Below are positions 4,501 to 14,161 of a stretch of 18,498 nt of DNA, in pieces. The stretch is from the IMG/VR virus record IMGVR_UViG_2657245081_000006; one strand, given 5' to 3'. The DNA is from a virus (Duplodnaviria; Heunggongvirae; Uroviricota; Caudoviricetes). A program made the translations under genes and the position numbers. Position 1 is the first letter of the stretch. Every line of letters starts with the position of its first letter. The notes beneath the pieces were generated by a model. It did not search any database, was not told where the DNA came from, and was given only the letters and a program-made list of their open reading frames with translations.

Positions 4501-5496
4501 TCAGGCCAGCACGCCTATTGCCAGCGCACGATCGATAAAACGAAATATCAGCTCCAGCTGGGAGCCATACTTCTCTTCAAATGCCACGGTATCCGCATGC
4601 AGCTCGTCGTGATGCTTTCTGCACAAAGGCAACACAAAGAGGTCATGCGCTTTTGTACCCATTCCACCCTGACCGTGGCCTATCAGGTGGTGGGGATCAT
4701 CAGCAGGCTTTCCACAACATGCACACGGCTGTGTCTTAACCCAGCGCGTGTACTTTTCATTAACCCAGCGGCGGCGTTTTGGGCGTAACATAAAAGACTC
4801 CGGCGACTCCGGATCCACTTTCAGCGCCAGCACCTTTTTCGCTTTATCCTGGATGATGCTGGTGGCAGGAACCGAAGGCACAAGGTCACTCTCCCGGGTG
4901 ACAGACGGCACAACAGGTTTCGGTAATCTCAGCGCCTTACGGGCTGCGCTTTCAGGTAAGGCATCCGCCAGGTCATTACGAATCAGCCACCAGCACAGTT
5001 CCGGCATTGTCACGGCATGGTTATCATCAAAACCGAGATCCCGACGGACTACAGACAACACCCAGCGGGCACAGTTATCCGTTGCCATTGATTCCAGCCG
5101 TTCCGTGAACTGATCGCGCAGCTGGTTATCGCAGTGCCAGCACAGACGGATTGCGCCCGGAGCGTGTCGCATTGTGGTCATGTTCTCGCTGTGCCAGTCG
5201 GAATGAGGCCACTGGCAGCCTTTTTCACGAAGTAACCAGCTTTCAAGACATTCCACGCCACCAGCACGACGGATCACTGCCTCATTGCGGAACACGGCCC
5301 GAACGGCAGGATCATCCGCCAGCGGTTGTGATACCGCCGGAACGGCACCACTGGCGAAAGATGAATAACGTTCCGGCTCAGGCTCCAGCAGGACACGCCC
5401 CTGCATAAACAGGGGCATCAGCTCTGAACCTGGCCTGAACAATACGATCCCCATACGCGGGGCAATTTCAGGGGTCAGTAGTGCTCTCACGGTCAC
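4501..5496 (-). CDS. DUF968-family phage protein (YdfU-like) with C-terminal Cys/His-rich HNH-like motif, 331 aa
   Basis: C-terminal CACCGKPADDPHHLIGHGQGG...LCRKHHDELH; position directly upstream of Q as in Qin/DLP12-type prophages. Annotated start is GTG at 5494-5496, 1 nt after the KilA-N stop. Confidence 0.7.
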   Translation of the reverse strand: MTVRALLTPEIAPRMGIVLFRPGSELMPLFMQGRVLLEPEPERYSSFASGAVPAVSQPLADDPAVRAVFRNEAVIRRAGGVECLESWLLREKGCQWPHSDWHSENMTTMRHAPGAIRLCWHCDNQLRDQFTERLESMATDNCARWVLSVVRRDLGFDDNHAVTMPELCWWLIRNDLADALPESAARKALRLPKPVVPSVTRESDLVPSVPATSIIQDKAKKVLALKVDPESPESFMLRPKRRRWVNEKYTRWVKTQPCACCGKPADDPHHLIGHGQGGMGTKAHDLFVLPLCRKHHDELHADTVAFEEKYGSQLELIFRFIDRALAIGVLA

Positions 5497-6716: not shown

Positions 6717-7039
6717 ACTTTCAGGCCCCTCTCATGTAACCAGTGGGCTGCACGCAACCTGGCGTTCTCCTCACCGGCAAGCAGTGCGCGGATGATACCG
6801 ACCGCCTCGCTGTCGTCGTCCTTCACCGCGGTATGAAGCGTGATGCCCCGGGCCACGCCACGCTTTATCGTGATGACGCCTTTTTTCTCCAGTGCGCGAA
6901 GATGCTCCACCGCTGCATTCACTGAACGGTATCCCAGCATGGTTGCCACCTCCTGATTGGTTGGCGGGAAGCCACGTTCTTTCTGATAAGAAATCAGCAT
7001 ATCCAGCACCTGCTGCTGGCATTGAGTTAACGTCGTCAT
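6713..7039 (-). CDS. LexA N-terminal DNA-binding-domain-like protein (no peptidase domain), 108 aa
   Basis: LTQCQQQVLDMLISYQKERGFPPTNQEVATMLGYRSVNAAVEHLRALEKKGVI resembles the LexA winged-helix DBD; ATGA overlaps at both ends. Confidence 0.6.
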   Translation of the reverse strand: MTTLTQCQQQVLDMLISYQKERGFPPTNQEVATMLGYRSVNAAVEHLRALEKKGVITIKRGVARGITLHTAVKDDDSEAVGIIRALLAGEENARLRAAHWLHERGLKV

Positions 7040-9172: not shown

Positions 9173-9393
9173 GCCGCACCTCCGAGATGCTTCATGTTTT
9201 TTCCGGAGCGAAAGGCTATAAGCGGCATACTGACGCGGTAATTACGGCCCAGCGGTTCACAAATCACCTTCTGACATTCACGGTCAACCAGGCTAACACG
9301 TAGAACATGCCCTGCAGGCGTGGTGTACCACTGACCGGGGCGAGGACAACGGAAAGTCTGATTGGTAAATCGTTTGAAAATATTCCGGATCAT
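9169..9393 (-). CDS. hypothetical small protein, 74 aa, translationally coupled between the Rha-domain gene and the O-like gene
   Basis: ATGA overlaps at both ends (9390-9393 and 9169-9172); no family recognised. Confidence 0.5.
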   Translation of the reverse strand: MIRNIFKRFTNQTFRCPRPGQWYTTPAGHVLRVSLVDRECQKVICEPLGRNYRVSMPLIAFRSGKNMKHLGGAA

Positions 9394-10538
9394 TTGCGCC
9401 CCCTTACCTCTGAAGAGTTCAGCGACGAATGAATAAGACGGGCAAGAAATGCCGCATCGTTAATTCGGTCATACAGACTTACAGCCAGAGGTGATTCAGC
9501 TTTTTCCAGCATGGGATAAAGCTGCTGCAACCAGACCTGATGAATTGATGAAATGTAGGAATAGAGAACGCTGGCGTTATGTGCAACGTCGCTCGGTACA
9601 GCGGGCTTTGAAAGCTGTTTCTCCATCTGGTTAAAGGCATTGATGTATGCCTCTTTGAACTGGGCAGCACGTTTACCCGTGAAACCCATAGCAAGAAACG
9701 CAAAGCCGTCGCGGGTTATTTGATAGCAAGGTAGTTTGCGGCCTGTGCAATCGGTGTAATCACTCACCGAAAAATTGCGGGCAGTGAATGATGCGGAACA
9801 TTCAAGCGTGCGGATCTTTTTCAGTACATCGTCATGACGTTTGGAGAAGAAGTTGGCAACAGCCAGGGATGAAGTAACAGCCTGACCATCAACGATGGCA
9901 ATTTCAGGTTGAGTGAGGGTTGGGATCGTAGCCATGATGGCAGTCTCCGATAACAGTGAATTACCTTCACCACCGGAAACGCCAATTTCGCTGGTGGTGA
10001 ACTGAACGGGGTTGGCGTAACCGGCGTTATCGGAAACCGGCGCACCTTTCGGTGCCCCCGTCCAGCCCACCATAATTTGGGTGTGCACAGACGCAGACGA
10101 TAAAAAAGACGCTGGCGCGTCATATATCGCCGATAACATTTCCAGGACGCCAATCCCGACACCCGCTTTATAAGGTGCCTGAACAGTGTAACGTCCCGGA
10201 ATGGCAGAATCAATGTGCTGGTGGTCCTTCACACTCAACAAAATCACGCCTGAATTTCCACAAAGGACTAAAGCACTCATGCGGGTAGTCTTTGCGAAGA
10301 TAGATAACGCGCTGTGTTTCTGGCTCCCAACGAATAACATGGACATAAAGCCCTCTTCCGTCACGAAACCAGCGGTTAAGTTCCTGCACAACTCGCCCCC
10401 CACAGTCAGGTAAAGTTCTCTGTGGTTACTTACAGCCAGGTGATTTGGTAATCTGCATTCATGCCGTAACAACAGGTGTTCAGCGACGCTGACCACCAGC
10501 TGTTGCGACAAACGGTTATTTGCCGTTAAACTGTTCAT
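9390..10538 (-). CDS. protein with C-terminal Rha (phage regulatory protein Rha) domain and an unrecognised about 200-aa N-terminal region, 382 aa; alternative start at 9935 would give a 181-aa Rha-only protein
   Basis: Residues about 211-308, IVDGQAVTSSLAVANFFSKRHDDVLKKI...YQITRDGFAFLAMGFTGKRAAQFKEAYINAFNQME, are the Rha signature. ATG 10536-10538 overlaps the cII-like stop (ATGA). Confidence 0.6.
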   Translation of the reverse strand: MNSLTANNRLSQQLVVSVAEHLLLRHECRLPNHLAVSNHRELYLTVGGELCRNLTAGFVTEEGFMSMLFVGSQKHSALSIFAKTTRMSALVLCGNSGVILLSVKDHQHIDSAIPGRYTVQAPYKAGVGIGVLEMLSAIYDAPASFLSSASVHTQIMVGWTGAPKGAPVSDNAGYANPVQFTTSEIGVSGGEGNSLLSETAIMATIPTLTQPEIAIVDGQAVTSSLAVANFFSKRHDDVLKKIRTLECSASFTARNFSVSDYTDCTGRKLPCYQITRDGFAFLAMGFTGKRAAQFKEAYINAFNQMEKQLSKPAVPSDVAHNASVLYSYISSIHQVWLQQLYPMLEKAESPLAVSLYDRINDAAFLARLIHSSLNSSEVRGRK

Positions 10539-11129: not shown

Positions 11130-11330
11130 TTAATCTTTCGGATAGATATCCGGTCTTAAGTCAGATTTCGTAATTGCACCTGACGTGCATTGCTCAAGTT
11201 TTTTAGCCAGCACAAAACTGGCTTTTTTATAACCATTGAAAACCAGCCGTAAGTAGCCTGGTGTTGAGCCAACTTTTCCGGCCAACTCGCCCTGCTGTTC
11301 TTTGGTTAAAGAGTCCCAATACGCTTTCAT
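11130..11330 (-). CDS. cro: Cro-like repressor (YdaS-type HTH), 66 aa
   Basis: MKAYWDSLTKEQQGELAGKVGSTPGYLRLVFNGYKKASFVLAKKLEQCTSGAITKSDLRPDIYPKD; GGAGG 10 nt upstream of the ATG at 11328-11330; divergent from cI. The 167-aa track ORF is an unsupported upstream extension. Confidence 0.75.
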   Translation of the reverse strand: MKAYWDSLTKEQQGELAGKVGSTPGYLRLVFNGYKKASFVLAKKLEQCTSGAITKSDLRPDIYPKD

Positions 11331-11420: not shown

Positions 11421-12095
11421 ATGAAAACAGTCCATGACATCCGGCGGTCTAACGCCAGAAAACTGAGAGATGGTGTTGGCGGGAATTCTTCCTTTGCCAC
11501 CATGATTGATCGCGAGCCAACCCAGACCAGCAGGTTTATGGGAGATGGTGCTACTAAAAATATCGGTGACAGCATGGCACGGCACATCGAAAAATGTTTC
11601 GACCTGCCTGTCGGATGGCTTGATCAAGAACACCAGACAACAAACATCACAAAAAAACCTGATGTTTCAATTACTAACAAACAAATAACGTTAGTCCCTG
11701 TCATATCATGGGTACAGGCCGGAGCATGGAAAGAAGTTGGCTATTCTGAGGTTGATTTGAGCACAGCAGAAACTTATCCCTGCCCTGTACCCTGTGGCGA
11801 AATGACTTATATCTTGCGGGTGATTGGTGATTCAATGATTGATGAGTACCGCCCGGGAGACATGATTTTTGTTGATCCTGAAGTCCCTGCCTGCCACGGT
11901 GACGACGTTATTGCATTGATGCACGATACAGGCGAAACCACCTTCAAGCGGTTGATAGAAGATGGAACACAGCGTTACCTCAAAGCATTAAACCCAAACT
12001 GGCCTGAACCTTACATTAAGATCAACGGTAATTGCTCTATAATTGGTACAGTGATTTTCTCAGGAAAACCAAGAAGATACAAAATAAAGGCCTAA
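11421..12095 (+). CDS. cI: CI-like prophage repressor, HTH plus S24 (LexA-like) autopeptidase domain, 224 aa
   Basis: C-terminal VPVISWVQAGAW...RVIGDSM...PGDMIFVD...GDDVIALMHDTGETTFKRL is the S24 peptidase signature; N-terminal HTH; no SD, consistent with a leaderless PRM transcript. Confidence 0.9.
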   Translation: MKTVHDIRRSNARKLRDGVGGNSSFATMIDREPTQTSRFMGDGATKNIGDSMARHIEKCFDLPVGWLDQEHQTTNITKKPDVSITNKQITLVPVISWVQAGAWKEVGYSEVDLSTAETYPCPVPCGEMTYILRVIGDSMIDEYRPGDMIFVDPEVPACHGDDVIALMHDTGETTFKRLIEDGTQRYLKALNPNWPEPYIKINGNCSIIGTVIFSGKPRRYKIKA

Positions 12096-12106: not shown

Positions 12107-12130
12107 AACCTGCTTCGGCAGGTTTTTTTA
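12107..12130 (+). terminator. intrinsic terminator downstream of cI
   Basis: aacctgc-ttcg-gcaggtt followed by ttttttt. Confidence 0.65.
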
Positions 12131-12133
12131 TAC

Positions 12134-12166
12134 TTGACAATGTACCCTTGAGATACATAATGTATC
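12134..12166 (+). promoter_or_regulatory. PL-like promoter with overlapping operator (OL)
   Basis: -35 TTGACA (12134-12139), 16-17 nt spacer, -10 CATAAT/ATAATG (12156-12162); operator ATGTA-N9-TACAT at 12140-12158 and a perfect 15-bp palindrome GATACATAATGTATC at 12152-12166. Confidence 0.6.
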
Positions 12167-12598
12167 TAAAAGAAACATAACACAGGCAAGATTAAACTAA
12201 ATTTGGTTGTAACACGGCGTATGGCACATGCGTCGTTAGCGGTCTGGGGACGTTAAAGGGGACAATCCACTCCTTGCTCGAGCAAACAAACCAGGTAGCC
12301 GGAATGTGCAAGTCAATGATGATGCTGATAAGACGCCTAACCAGCGTGGCGATTCGGTTTGACGCCTGGGAAGAGACCAGGGTGCAACGATGAGGGCATT
12401 TATGGAACCGCGACAAAGTGTGGTGCCGTAACTGGCTAAGTGCTCTCAGCGTTGTGGTGAATGCGCAGGCTGATGCGCGAAAGACATTGCAGCTATTGCG
12501 GAAAAGAGCTGTTCGGCGGGGCAATTAAACGCCCGTGAGAGTCTGAAATAACCGCAAGCCGGAGATCAGCACCGGTCACCACAACAGCCACTGCTTTG

Positions 12599-12646
12599 GC
12601 GGTACCAGTTTGTACACTTGCTTCCGGCTGGTACCGCTCTTTTTAC
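12599..12646 (+). terminator. terminator-like hairpin in the PL leader (10-bp stem gcggtaccag/ctggtaccgc, 19-nt loop, then TCTTTTT)
   Basis: Perfect 10-bp inverted repeat at 12599-12608 / 12628-12637 followed by a T-run at 12640-12644; the loop is long for a canonical terminator. Confidence 0.45.
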
Positions 12647-12733
12647 AAAACAGAGAAGAGCATCACCGGACGACGGGCTCATAACCCAATCCATCCGGGC
12701 GGCTGCCACCGCAGGTGTTCTTCTCTGTTTTGT
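12645..12733 (+). repeat. 15-bp perfect inverted repeat (acaaaacagagaaga / tcttctctgttttgt) enclosing 59 nt
   Basis: 12645-12659 is the exact reverse complement of 12719-12733; it lies in the untranslated leader just upstream of the first early-left gene. Confidence 0.7.
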
Positions 12734-12778
12734 GGAGAAACTAACCGACCTTGCAGGGTCGATATGATGAGGAGCAGC

Positions 12779-13144
12779 AAAATGGCTAGCGAACGCAGTA
12801 CTGATGTGCAGGCATTTATCGGGGAGCTGGACGGCGGCGTATTTGAAACCAAAATCGGCGCAGTTCTCAGTGAAGTCGCTTCCGGTGTGATGAACACGAA
12901 AACCAAAGGTAAGGTCTCGCTCAACCTGGAAATCGAACCATTTGATGAGAACCGTGTGAAAATCAAACACAAACTCTCATATGTTCGCCCGACTAACCGC
13001 GGGAAAATTTCCGAAGAAGACACCACCGAAACACCGATGTATGTCAATCGCGGTGGTCGCCTGACTATTCTGCAGGAAGACCAGGGACAATTACTGACTC
13101 TTGCCGGTGAACCTGACGGAAAACTACGCGCAGCAGGTCATTAA
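12779..13144 (+). CDS. YfdP-like prophage protein, 121 aa
   Basis: AGGAG 7 nt upstream of the ATG at 12779; followed by YfdQ- and YfdR-like genes as in the CPS-53 (KpLE1) yfdPQRST cluster. The 182-aa track ORF is an upstream extension through the structured leader. Confidence 0.65.
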   Translation, partial: KMASERSTDVQAFIGELDGGVFETKIGAVLSEVASGVMNTKTKGKVSLNLEIEPFDENRVKIKHKLSYVRPTNRGKISEEDTTETPMYVNRGGRLTILQEDQGQLLTLAGEPDGKLRAAGH

Positions 13145-14034: not shown

Positions 14035-14161
14035 TTTCATTACTGCAAATGCCCCTGCGGGGGCATTTATGGAAACGTAATTAACTCAATAATCACCGAA
14101 TGGTGAGGGCTTCCTTTTACCAGAATTCAGCGCGGTGCAGTGCATATACGTGGAGAACAAA

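Follow-up and report, generated by a model that had tools for sequence, protein, structure and literature searches.

The stretch of viral DNA analysed here (IMG/VR virus record IMGVR_UViG_2657245081_000006, Caudoviricetes; 18,498 nucleotides (nt) in all, hereafter the window) contains a lambdoid immunity region with a cro-like gene (minus strand, ~11130-11330) and an S24-type cI repressor gene (11421-12095, plus strand), beyond which lie an intrinsic terminator, a promoter resembling the early-left promoter PL and, after a gene-free leader of ~620 bases, a yfdP-like gene. This leader, the subject of the present study, consists of consecutive RNA modules designated A, M2, sRNA-17 (a small RNA (sRNA) made up of module B and the terminator hairpin H1), H2 and H3 (Table 1). 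On balance we favour the view that it is an early non-coding RNA operon of exchangeable cassettes, in which H1 would attenuate transcription and H2 would be a tRNA-derived mimic.

Table 1. Positions of the leader modules and of the elements that border them in the window (MFE, minimum free energy; z, score relative to shuffled sequences).
Feature	Position	Strand	Basis
Intrinsic terminator ending the cI-like gene	12107..12124	+	7-bp stem + T run
PL-like promoter, TTGACA-16-CATAAT	12134-12161	+	11/12 consensus matches (near-consensus); directly 3' of cI terminator
Two operator-like half-palindromes overlapping the PL-like promoter	12140-12158, 12160-12178	+	sequence
Module A, candidate conserved structured RNA	12201..12385	+	7-sequence alignment, consensus fold
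Module M2, hairpin closed by 17-bp stem (12381-12397 with 12439-12456)	12381..12459	+	fold, z -2.95
Module B, predicted closing helix 12451-12460/12576-12585 and hairpins 12463-12478 and 12558-12575	within 12450..12643	+	predicted fold
sRNA-17 (module B + H1)	12450..12643	+	exact primer/probe matches to published RNA
H1, intrinsic terminator/attenuator of DicF-like build (UUUGGCGGUACCAG...CUGGUACCGC UCUUUUU)	12597..12644	+	fold, conservation
H2, three-way-junction RNA: 19-bp stem P1, hairpin P2, variable hairpin P3	12642..12737	+	covariation, MFE fold
H2 core GACGGGCUCAUAACCCAAUCC, most conserved segment, apical part of P2	12672..12692	+	alignment
GGGCUCAUAACCC, anticodon stem-loop of E. coli initiator tRNA-fMet	12675-12687	+	metZ sequence comparison
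Conserved single-stranded motif GUGGAGAAACUAAC	12732..12745	+	alignment
H3, small hairpin (stem-loop 12746-12761), loop (U/G)(U/G)GCAG, just before the ribosome-binding site	12745..12762	+	alignment
Shine-Dalgarno sequence GAGGAG (12769-12774) and yfdP-like first gene (ATG 12782)	12769..13144	+	RefSeq name YfdP

Architecture of the early-left leader

The phages closest to the window are mEp460 (99% identity from 12195 onward), Ayreon, cdtI, 2H10, Stx2c phages and SfV. A 19-bp operator-like palindrome (ATGTACCCTTGAGATACAT, 12140-12158) overlaps the PL-like site and a similar one (ATGTACCTCCGATATACAT) lies in the cro/cI intergenic region; the Ayreon record has an annotated promoter at the PL-like site, and the annotations of Ayreon and SfV both place a terminator where that of the cI-like gene is found here. 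We infer that TTGACA-16-CATAAT functions as the PL promoter. On the plus strand, no open reading frame (ORF) of at least 30 amino acids begins with ATG between 12163 and 12781. A listed 182-amino-acid TTG ORF is merely the in-frame upstream extension of the yfdP-like gene; the minus strand has a 110-amino-acid TTG ORF (12192-12524) that is annotated in mEp460 but broken in the Ayreon variant, which is ~90% identical across the entire leader; and a 25-amino-acid peptide, MRRLMRERHCSYCGKELFGGAIKRP, is encoded at 12461-12538. As an RNA the whole leader folds to an MFE of -228 kcal/mol, against -198 +/- 4.4 for shuffled sequences (z -6.8). An earlier sequence-only reading of this DNA had described the promoter with its overlapping operators, the ORF-free and highly structured leader, the 25-residue peptide and three hairpins (the H1 stem, a long inverted repeat that forms H2, and cgacc-ttgcag-ggtcg, i.e. 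H3), all of which we recover at the same positions. Its statement that an N-like gene is lacking also holds, the first gene having no Pfam match and no N-like ORF being found; it did not extend to the modular build, to the tRNA-fMet identity that lies in the inverted repeat or to the relationship with the Qin dicBF and P1 ban leaders, all described below.

The leader was compared with 31 loci fetched via the YfdP protein from species-representative genomes, 80 IMG/VR loci and a phage collection. Breakpoints at ~12192/12195, 12448, 12569 and 12597 recur across many prophages, and pieces of the leader travel separately in other phages; its RNA modules are separately exchangeable and the leader is a mosaic of them. 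The only segment nearly always linked to yfdP is 12597-12781, the interval from PL to 12597 being a variable slot that is filled by orf33 in SfV. The suggestion in the earlier reading that this position is a defence hotspot is thereby borne out as to a mosaic insertion slot but not as to its contents, which here are RNAs and not proteins. At three loci upstream of yfdP, one of them CPS-53 of K-12, direct repeats of the type GATTTTGACGGGTCAGA, iteron-like in look, replace H1-H2.

The upstream modules, sRNA-17 and the terminator H1

The consensus fold of module A contains 34 pairs, six of them with compensatory changes in an alignment of seven sequences only, and the module is common to P1 (between trnI and ban), phiV10, TL-2011b and prophages of Kosakonia and Phytobacter. 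Module M2 belongs to a family defined by a CACAAC...GUUGUG closing stem and gives a weak match (11.3 bits) to the covariance model of H2 described below. Its 3' strand starts a 44-nt core (12437-12484), comprising the 3' strand of a closing stem of that type and a small hairpin, which is ~90% conserved among unrelated virulent and temperate phages (T1-like, Vi01-like Magnus, P22-like/HK620, phiEt88 and ES2); in HK620 it sits in the late leader, between qut and tQ. The segment 12438-12586 recurs in IME207 and in the P1-like phage JL22, beside tRNA genes, and a G-C to A-U exchange in JL22 (GUUGUGAUGA/UCAUCACAAC) supports the closing helix of module B. The JL22 and Magnus modules carry a T-arm-like sequence, GGUUCGAAUCC, and in Magnus and HK620 weak tmRNA/tRNA-like matches immediately precede the core; on these resemblances the cassette modules look tRNA-derived. 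The core often directly follows a tRNA or tRNA-like sequence and may serve as a cassette boundary. Small hairpins equivalent to that at 12558-12575 end B-type modules at many loci; in the window this hairpin has the sequence GCCGGAGAUCAGCACCGG and is similar, though not significantly so (13.7 bits), to nt 30-47 of the RydB sRNA of E. coli.

Module B and H1 together correspond to a published transcript. sRNA-17, a 193-nt RNA of E. coli K1 RS218, was mapped in an mEp460-type prophage by 5'/3' rapid amplification of cDNA ends (RACE) and northern blotting (Front Microbiol 2020, PMC7719688), and because the full-length primers and antisense northern probe of that study match the window exactly, at 12450-12482 (plus strand), 12612-12643 (minus) and 12512-12561 (minus), sRNA-17 is the plus-strand RNA 12450-12643. 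Its 3' end is the U tract of H1, consistent with the published RACE. The processed regulatory sRNA that the earlier reading had listed among its possibilities is therefore present, with the terminator-like hairpin as its 3' end. The amplicon used for quantitative reverse-transcription PCR in the same study maps to 12201-12596, indicating that a longer RNA than sRNA-17 exists and that the 5' end at 12450, which falls where the closing helices of M2 and B overlap, is probably a processing site.

H1 has a perfect 10-bp stem (12599-12608/12628-12637) followed by TCTTTTT and, folded alone, is more stable than its shuffles (z -3.6). A hairpin with a U tract was present in all 21 sequences examined (the window and 20 homologous loci), the stems differing in sequence and staying complementary, and of 143 distinct H2 contexts 139 have a U tract just upstream. 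A variant of H1 with a long loop, found at more than five loci, contains an inner hairpin and the conserved string GAAGAUAAUGUUCUG; upstream of many H1 copies stands a conserved UGUGUAGUC, perhaps a seed, that is unlike the one in the window. In the RS218 lysogen, yfdP gave ~0.5 reads in the wild type versus 47 after deletion of 12476-12596, and deletion of sRNA-17 raised both yfdP and yfdR (PMC7719688). The yfdP read counts fit an efficient attenuator at H1 and a cis effect of the deletion, and the reported 'regulation' of yfdP by sRNA-17 is probably such a cis effect. A published, virulence-linked sRNA is thereby recast as a piece of a phage early leader close to its promoter.

The same deletion, in altering yfdP expression, bears on a different type of attenuation, in which translation of the 25-amino-acid ORF, or a ligand, would choose between H1 and an antiterminator (12502-12512 with 12633-12643). 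The complementary 11-mers that this requires are present (AAAAGAGCTGT and ACCGCTCTTTT), and the first six codons of the ORF (MRRLMR) recur in HK620 and Magnus. We nevertheless judge a leader-peptide attenuator or riboswitch very improbable: the ATG lacks a spaced Shine-Dalgarno sequence; past codon 8 the homologs diverge and shift frame, so that it is the nucleotides and not the peptide that are conserved; SfV-type leaders have H1 but not the ORF; loss of the putative antiterminator arm raised, rather than lowered, downstream expression; and no Rfam riboswitch was matched. Of the riboswitch-like attenuator that had been proposed from the sequence, attenuation by H1 appears to stand (yfdP at ~0 reads in RS218), whilst the riboswitch itself has only the low probability just given.

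Module H2, its relatives and the genes around it

The outer stem of H2 is the inverted repeat 12645-12669/12709-12733, of which the outer 15 bp are perfect, and P1 begins in the last U of the H1 terminator tail. The MFE fold gives the same three-way structure as the alignment (z -7.5). In an alignment of 42 distinct sequences, 95.4% of cells are paired, a share that falls to 35-54% on sliding the partners; both sides have changed in 13 pairs, the covariation score was reached by none of 500 shuffles, and the G.U pairs are compatible with the plus strand only. Both H1 and H2 are conserved with compensatory changes across genera, which answers the question of paired-segment conservation left by the sequence-only reading. 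The Rfam scan that it had also suggested matched no family (Rfam 15, leader searched at gathering score and at E<=10).

These data bear on the possibility that the leader is a decayed protein-coding gene, as had also been raised, or non-functional filler. In the Ayreon record each strand of this region has annotated ORFs, in that of mEp460 the non-leader strand does, and 'ymfH' is annotated over an H2 homolog in the e14 element of K-12. However, variants whose leaders are ~90% identical do not share the annotated ORFs and no frame is retained; covariation is strong and G.U pairs are confined to one strand; identity in the non-coding sequence (71-92%) is similar to or higher than that of the neighbouring gene at the protein level (57-76%); and RNA from the region has been detected experimentally (PMC7719688). 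A degraded gene can, in our judgement, scarcely be credited.

The most conserved part of H2 is the apical core of P2. Within it, GGGCUCAUAACCC is identical at 13 of 13 nt to positions 29-41 of tRNA-fMet, i.e. three G-C pairs and the loop CUCAUAA, and the MFE fold displays it as a 3-bp GGG/CCC stem with a 7-nt loop. Three G-C pairs in the anticodon stem are the mark of initiator tRNAs. Conservation of the motif was judged only on loci fetched through the YfdP protein, most IMG/VR copies having been retrieved with the motif itself: G(G)GCUCAU..CC(C) is kept in 18 of 21 such H2 loci, four of the 18 having only two G-C pairs, and of the remaining three one has a different loop and two (Providencia) a simpler hairpin. 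The 21-nt core is also present on other scaffolds (loci L124, L137 and L160). ARAGORN found no tRNA gene in the window, and the Rfam tRNA model (RF00005) had no match in the leader at E<=10. A tRNA gene or att remnant was rejected as an origin, there being no cloverleaf, the wrong part of the tRNA being copied and int lying far away. Mimicry of an anticodon arm has a parallel in the thrS operator, which mimics that of tRNA-Thr. From its sequence, the tip of H2 may be a mimic that engages a factor reading the initiator anticodon arm; an exact copy of that arm on a conserved phage RNA has no precedent in Rfam or in the papers searched.

A covariance model (R1) was built from H2 sequences including the window copy, which it scores at 102.5 bits as a member of its own training set. 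With filters off, R1 detects H2 once in the window and once across the whole mEp460 genome, with no copy on the PR side. Complete E. coli genomes carry the H1-H2-H3 block in 2775 of 5426 cases (51%), with up to five copies each, and many other enterobacterial genera have it too; no E. coli copy is annotated as RNA. Half of these genomes therefore hold an unannotated RNA block, and in several records probably spurious ORFs cover it or its relatives (ymfH; plp and upl). In e14 (5103-5198, minus strand) the annotated YmfH overlies a decayed H2 (73.5 bits) with the loop UUAAUAA and mismatches in P2 and P3, and ymfH is probably not a protein gene.

More distant relatives share a family signature, the closing stem 5' CACAACAGGUAAGRGCAYY ... 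RRUGCYCUUACCGUUGUGRUGAA 3'. On the operon strand of the P1 ban operon, R1 matches of 44.8 and 33.1 bits carry the loops UUCAUAU and GUCAUAU on GGG/CCC stems, and further, weaker matches share the closing stem only; the P1 modules lie between a dicF-like region and the genes for tRNA-Asn, tRNA-Thr and tRNA-Ile. In the P1 record AF234172 (1051-2080, plus strand) H2-family modules run beneath the minus-strand ORFs plp and upl, plp overlapping tRNA-Thr, and what was annotated as these two ORFs may in truth be an RNA array. In Qin a weak match (18.4 bits) lies upstream of dicF.

Between H2 and the first gene, GUGGAGAAACUAAC is retained even where the interior of H2 differs (Providencia, Limnobaculum). 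It resembles what we take to be the ftsZ ribosome-binding site, a likeness from which we draw no claim. The stems of H3 vary yet stay complementary (CGACC/GGUCG, GGCGG/CCGCC, GCGCC/GGCGU, GCCC/GGGC); folded alone, H3 is not significant (z -1.1). The first genes that H2 precedes are varied, including yfdP-like genes and others whose products start MxNPFFKN....

That H2, GUGGAGAAACUAAC, H3 and the Shine-Dalgarno sequence stay together before different first genes is what would be expected if H2 and H3 were a purely cis-acting mRNA leader, in which cutting or refolding of the stem set the stability or translation of the first gene and the tRNA-like loop was incidental or a protein operator, as in thrS. 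At 19 bp, the P1 stem is as long as a substrate of RNase III would be, some P3 loops look like an anti-Shine-Dalgarno sequence (CUUCCUAA), and the position of H2 matches that of a hairpin in the lambda N leader, which is reportedly sensitive to RNase III. We regard this explanation as unlikely, given that P1 relatives with the same loop lie inside an array, away from any ribosome-binding site, that the core on different scaffolds (the three loci named above) favours a specific ligand over a generic stem, and that no alternative pairing occluding the Shine-Dalgarno sequence was found.

Several other ideas about H2 and its surroundings were considered and dropped. AgvB/AsxR, considered for CACAAC-type GcvB-target motifs in the 5' arm of H2, had no Rfam match, and the window variant lacks the motif. 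The loop sequence CUCAU could pair with AUGAG at the start codon in some yfdP homologs, but neither in the window nor with other first genes; the loops of P3 and H3 are complementary in some variants (CUGCCA/UGGCAG) without consistent co-variation; and for an upstream GTG-initiated ORF starting GUGGAG neither frame nor stop is conserved. Other look-alikes (ops/RfaH (GGCGGTAG), integron attC and CRISPR-repeat mimicry) were poor matches.

Downstream of the yfdP-like gene the order is yfdQ (DUF2303), a YfbR-like HD protein, DUF551, an Rv2179c-like exoribonuclease and PrtN. An H3-like hairpin (AAATGCCCCTGCGGGGGCATTT, 14047-14068) follows yfdQ, and some prophages (two loci) have lost yfdP and yfdQ, which joins H2 directly to this post-yfdQ hairpin; such hairpins may be elements of a general kind found between cistrons. 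Elsewhere in the window, Rfam C4 antisense RNA (82.8 bits) and isrK (61.5 bits) matches lie at 9990-10178 (minus strand) inside a 382-amino-acid ORF (9390-10538). The Pfam Phage_ASH match of this ORF (amino acids 117-212, ~nt 9903-10190) coincides with both and is followed by a Rha domain; either the ORF has been called from too early a start or part of the Ash 'domain' is an RNA locus in translation.

A model for the leader and its relation to known systems

In the RNA-operon model that we favour, plus-strand transcription from the repressor-controlled PL would produce a precursor containing A, M2, B and H1. Most transcripts would end at H1, giving sRNA-17, the 5' end of which, where the closing helices of M2 and B have their base, would probably arise by processing, RNase III and RNase E being candidate enzymes. 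As an attenuator, H1 would hold down expression of yfdP and of the other genes in the early-left operon. Transcripts that read through would start the early-left mRNA with a leader of H2 and H3. H2 would be a tRNA-derived mimic, whose partner could be the 30S P site with IF3, MetRS or a nuclease specific for initiator tRNA, e.g. VapC, and its long stem may double as a processing site that separates sRNA from mRNA, in the way that RNase III reportedly acts in DicF maturation and in the lambda N leader. VapC is said to be specific for initiator tRNA.

A number of points weigh against this model. The transcript data come from RS218, and the 95-fold increase in yfdP there might be an artefact of the deletion cassette. 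The lysogen in which sRNA-17 was detected ought to have its PL switched off by cI, and the authors of that study put the promoter in module A, the fragment that they call the 'sRNA-17 promoter' (PMC7719688), in which our scan found no sigma-70-like site. Processing by RNase III or RNase E is suggested only by analogy with DicF, which is reportedly processed by these enzymes. For H2, some homologs are without the mimic (L031 with another loop, Providencia with a simpler hairpin, four loci with two G-C pairs); copies retrieved with the motif cannot count toward its invariance; and a single tRNA-fMet anticodon arm serves all Enterobacterales, leaving no variation in the host with which H2 could co-vary.

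As a more speculative extension, which we hold to be conceivable but rather doubtful, H2 could be the first of a class of RNAs from tRNA genes, i.e. stem-closed cassettes that show an anticodon arm and are made early as decoys or competitors for a host factor; an initiator-tRNA-cleaving PIN toxin (enteric VapC/MvpT) or the 30S P site with IF3 would be candidates. Were this so, the strategy by which phage tRNAs counter tRNA-targeting defence would extend to non-decoding RNA mimics, and the same cassettes with other inserts would fill the 'empty' leaders of P1 ban, Qin dicBF and P22-like late regions. H2 as a decoy, or as a ribosome or synthetase ligand, would represent a new class of phage-host RNA mimicry.

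With lambda nutL-N the window shares the map order, i.e. cI, PL, a long structured leader and the first early-left gene, as well as a long hairpin before the ribosome-binding site; it differs in having neither an N gene nor boxB. A test of the region for lambda N/nut elements found no arginine-rich N-like ORF and no boxB-type hairpin conserved beside the boxA-like string, and that string, CGCTCTTTTTA, is only the tail of H1, is not conserved in homologs and was rejected as a boxA.

HK022 is likewise an N-less lambdoid phage with a structured RNA, put, just downstream of PL, and the earlier reading had raised a put-like RNA here; one recent paper merely speculates that N-less phages of this kind may use one. 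The absence of N, the position of the leader at the putL site and the apparent efficiency of H1 in the lysogen, such that early-left expression after induction needs some relief, would all suit a cis-acting processive antiterminator RNA, whether a put member or a new kind that modifies RNA polymerase, replacing N and reading through H1 and later terminators. In one IMG/VR locus (L208, ~6750-6900, minus strand), moreover, H2 directly follows a promoter-like TTGCGT-17-TATTTT with ACGCAA/TTGCGT palindromes, without H1, and can therefore be the extreme 5' end of an early transcript. Against this, put, which acts through the beta' zinc-binding domain of RNA polymerase to suppress pausing and termination, is a two-hairpin element of ~70 nt that occurs as a putL/putR pair before the terminators it suppresses, whereas H2 is a single three-way junction with no match to put in sequence or structure, is present once per genome with no counterpart in the PR operon, and cannot act on H1 because it lies after it. 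A covariance model (R2) built from seven put sequences scores HK022 putL at 95.6 bits and putR at 48.6 bits and, in the window or the whole mEp460 genome, reaches at best 10.2 bits (E 0.6) at an unrelated site; blastn with putL matched 21 phage records, none of this phage group. Furthermore, no other plus-strand intrinsic terminator was found between 12650 and 17250, and A, M2 and B, which lie upstream of H1, are absent from SfV-type leaders that keep H1-H2. Membership of the put family is thus ruled out here and we consider an antiterminator of any kind improbable. N-less lambdoid phages (SfV, mEp460, ST64B and LLS type) are common, and for these a terminator-based attenuator together with RNA modules is indicated instead.

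The relation to STnc100 and PasD is transitive only: the core of module B lies in the HK620 late leader, a region of PasD-type sRNAs (bioRxiv 10.64898/2026.05.13.724894), but no part of the window, module B included, matches STnc100 (RF02076). The Pas sRNAs themselves were set aside, that 2026 preprint covering the late region and so not being relevant to an early-left leader. Compared with tRNA, H2 has the initiator arm on a hairpin with a 7-nt loop, and its relatives, some of which carry T-arm-like sequence, are interleaved with real tRNA genes; it lacks a cloverleaf, D arm and CCA end, and has instead the 19-bp closing stem.

The sRNA-17 of PMC7719688 has the same sequence and strand as that of the window and comes from the same type of prophage, but the view taken there differs from ours: it is described as a free-standing, ArcA-regulated, trans-acting sRNA, with no placement in a PL leader, no terminator or attenuator role, no DicF-like build and no mention of A, M2 or H2. 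What is already known is accordingly sRNA-17 and a layout of the DicF type, whereas H2, its initiator-tRNA mimicry, the modular reading of the leader and the P1/Qin cassette family are in neither Rfam 15 nor the literature searched.

The nearest known counterpart is DicF with the dicBF operon of Qin. The loop and 5' seed of H1 differ from those of DicF, which pairs with the ftsZ, xylR and pykA mRNAs, and the Rfam DicF model (RF00039), which scores K-12 dicF at 76.7 bits as a positive control, has no match in the leader at E<=10 and none in 20 homologous loci at gathering score. Nevertheless, both are repressor-controlled early operons with a long untranslated stretch. In both, a single-stranded 5' part is followed by a GGCGG...CCGCC terminator and a U tail (UUUGGCGGUACCAGUUUGUAC in the window, UUUGGCGGUAUCAGUUUUAC in DicF), the 5' arm and loop start of H1 resembling those of DicF, and a long-stem module then precedes the first protein gene. 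In Qin the order is sRNA terminator, long-stem module starting with the B-type motif GUGGUGAAUGCGG, and dicB; that module, the counterpart of module B, matches STnc100 (RF02076) at 34.4 bits (E 5e-5), below the gathering score of 47, and Qin also has the weak H2-family match noted above. This parallel in layout, together with the P1 relatives amid tRNA genes, supports the reading of the leader as an RNA operon.

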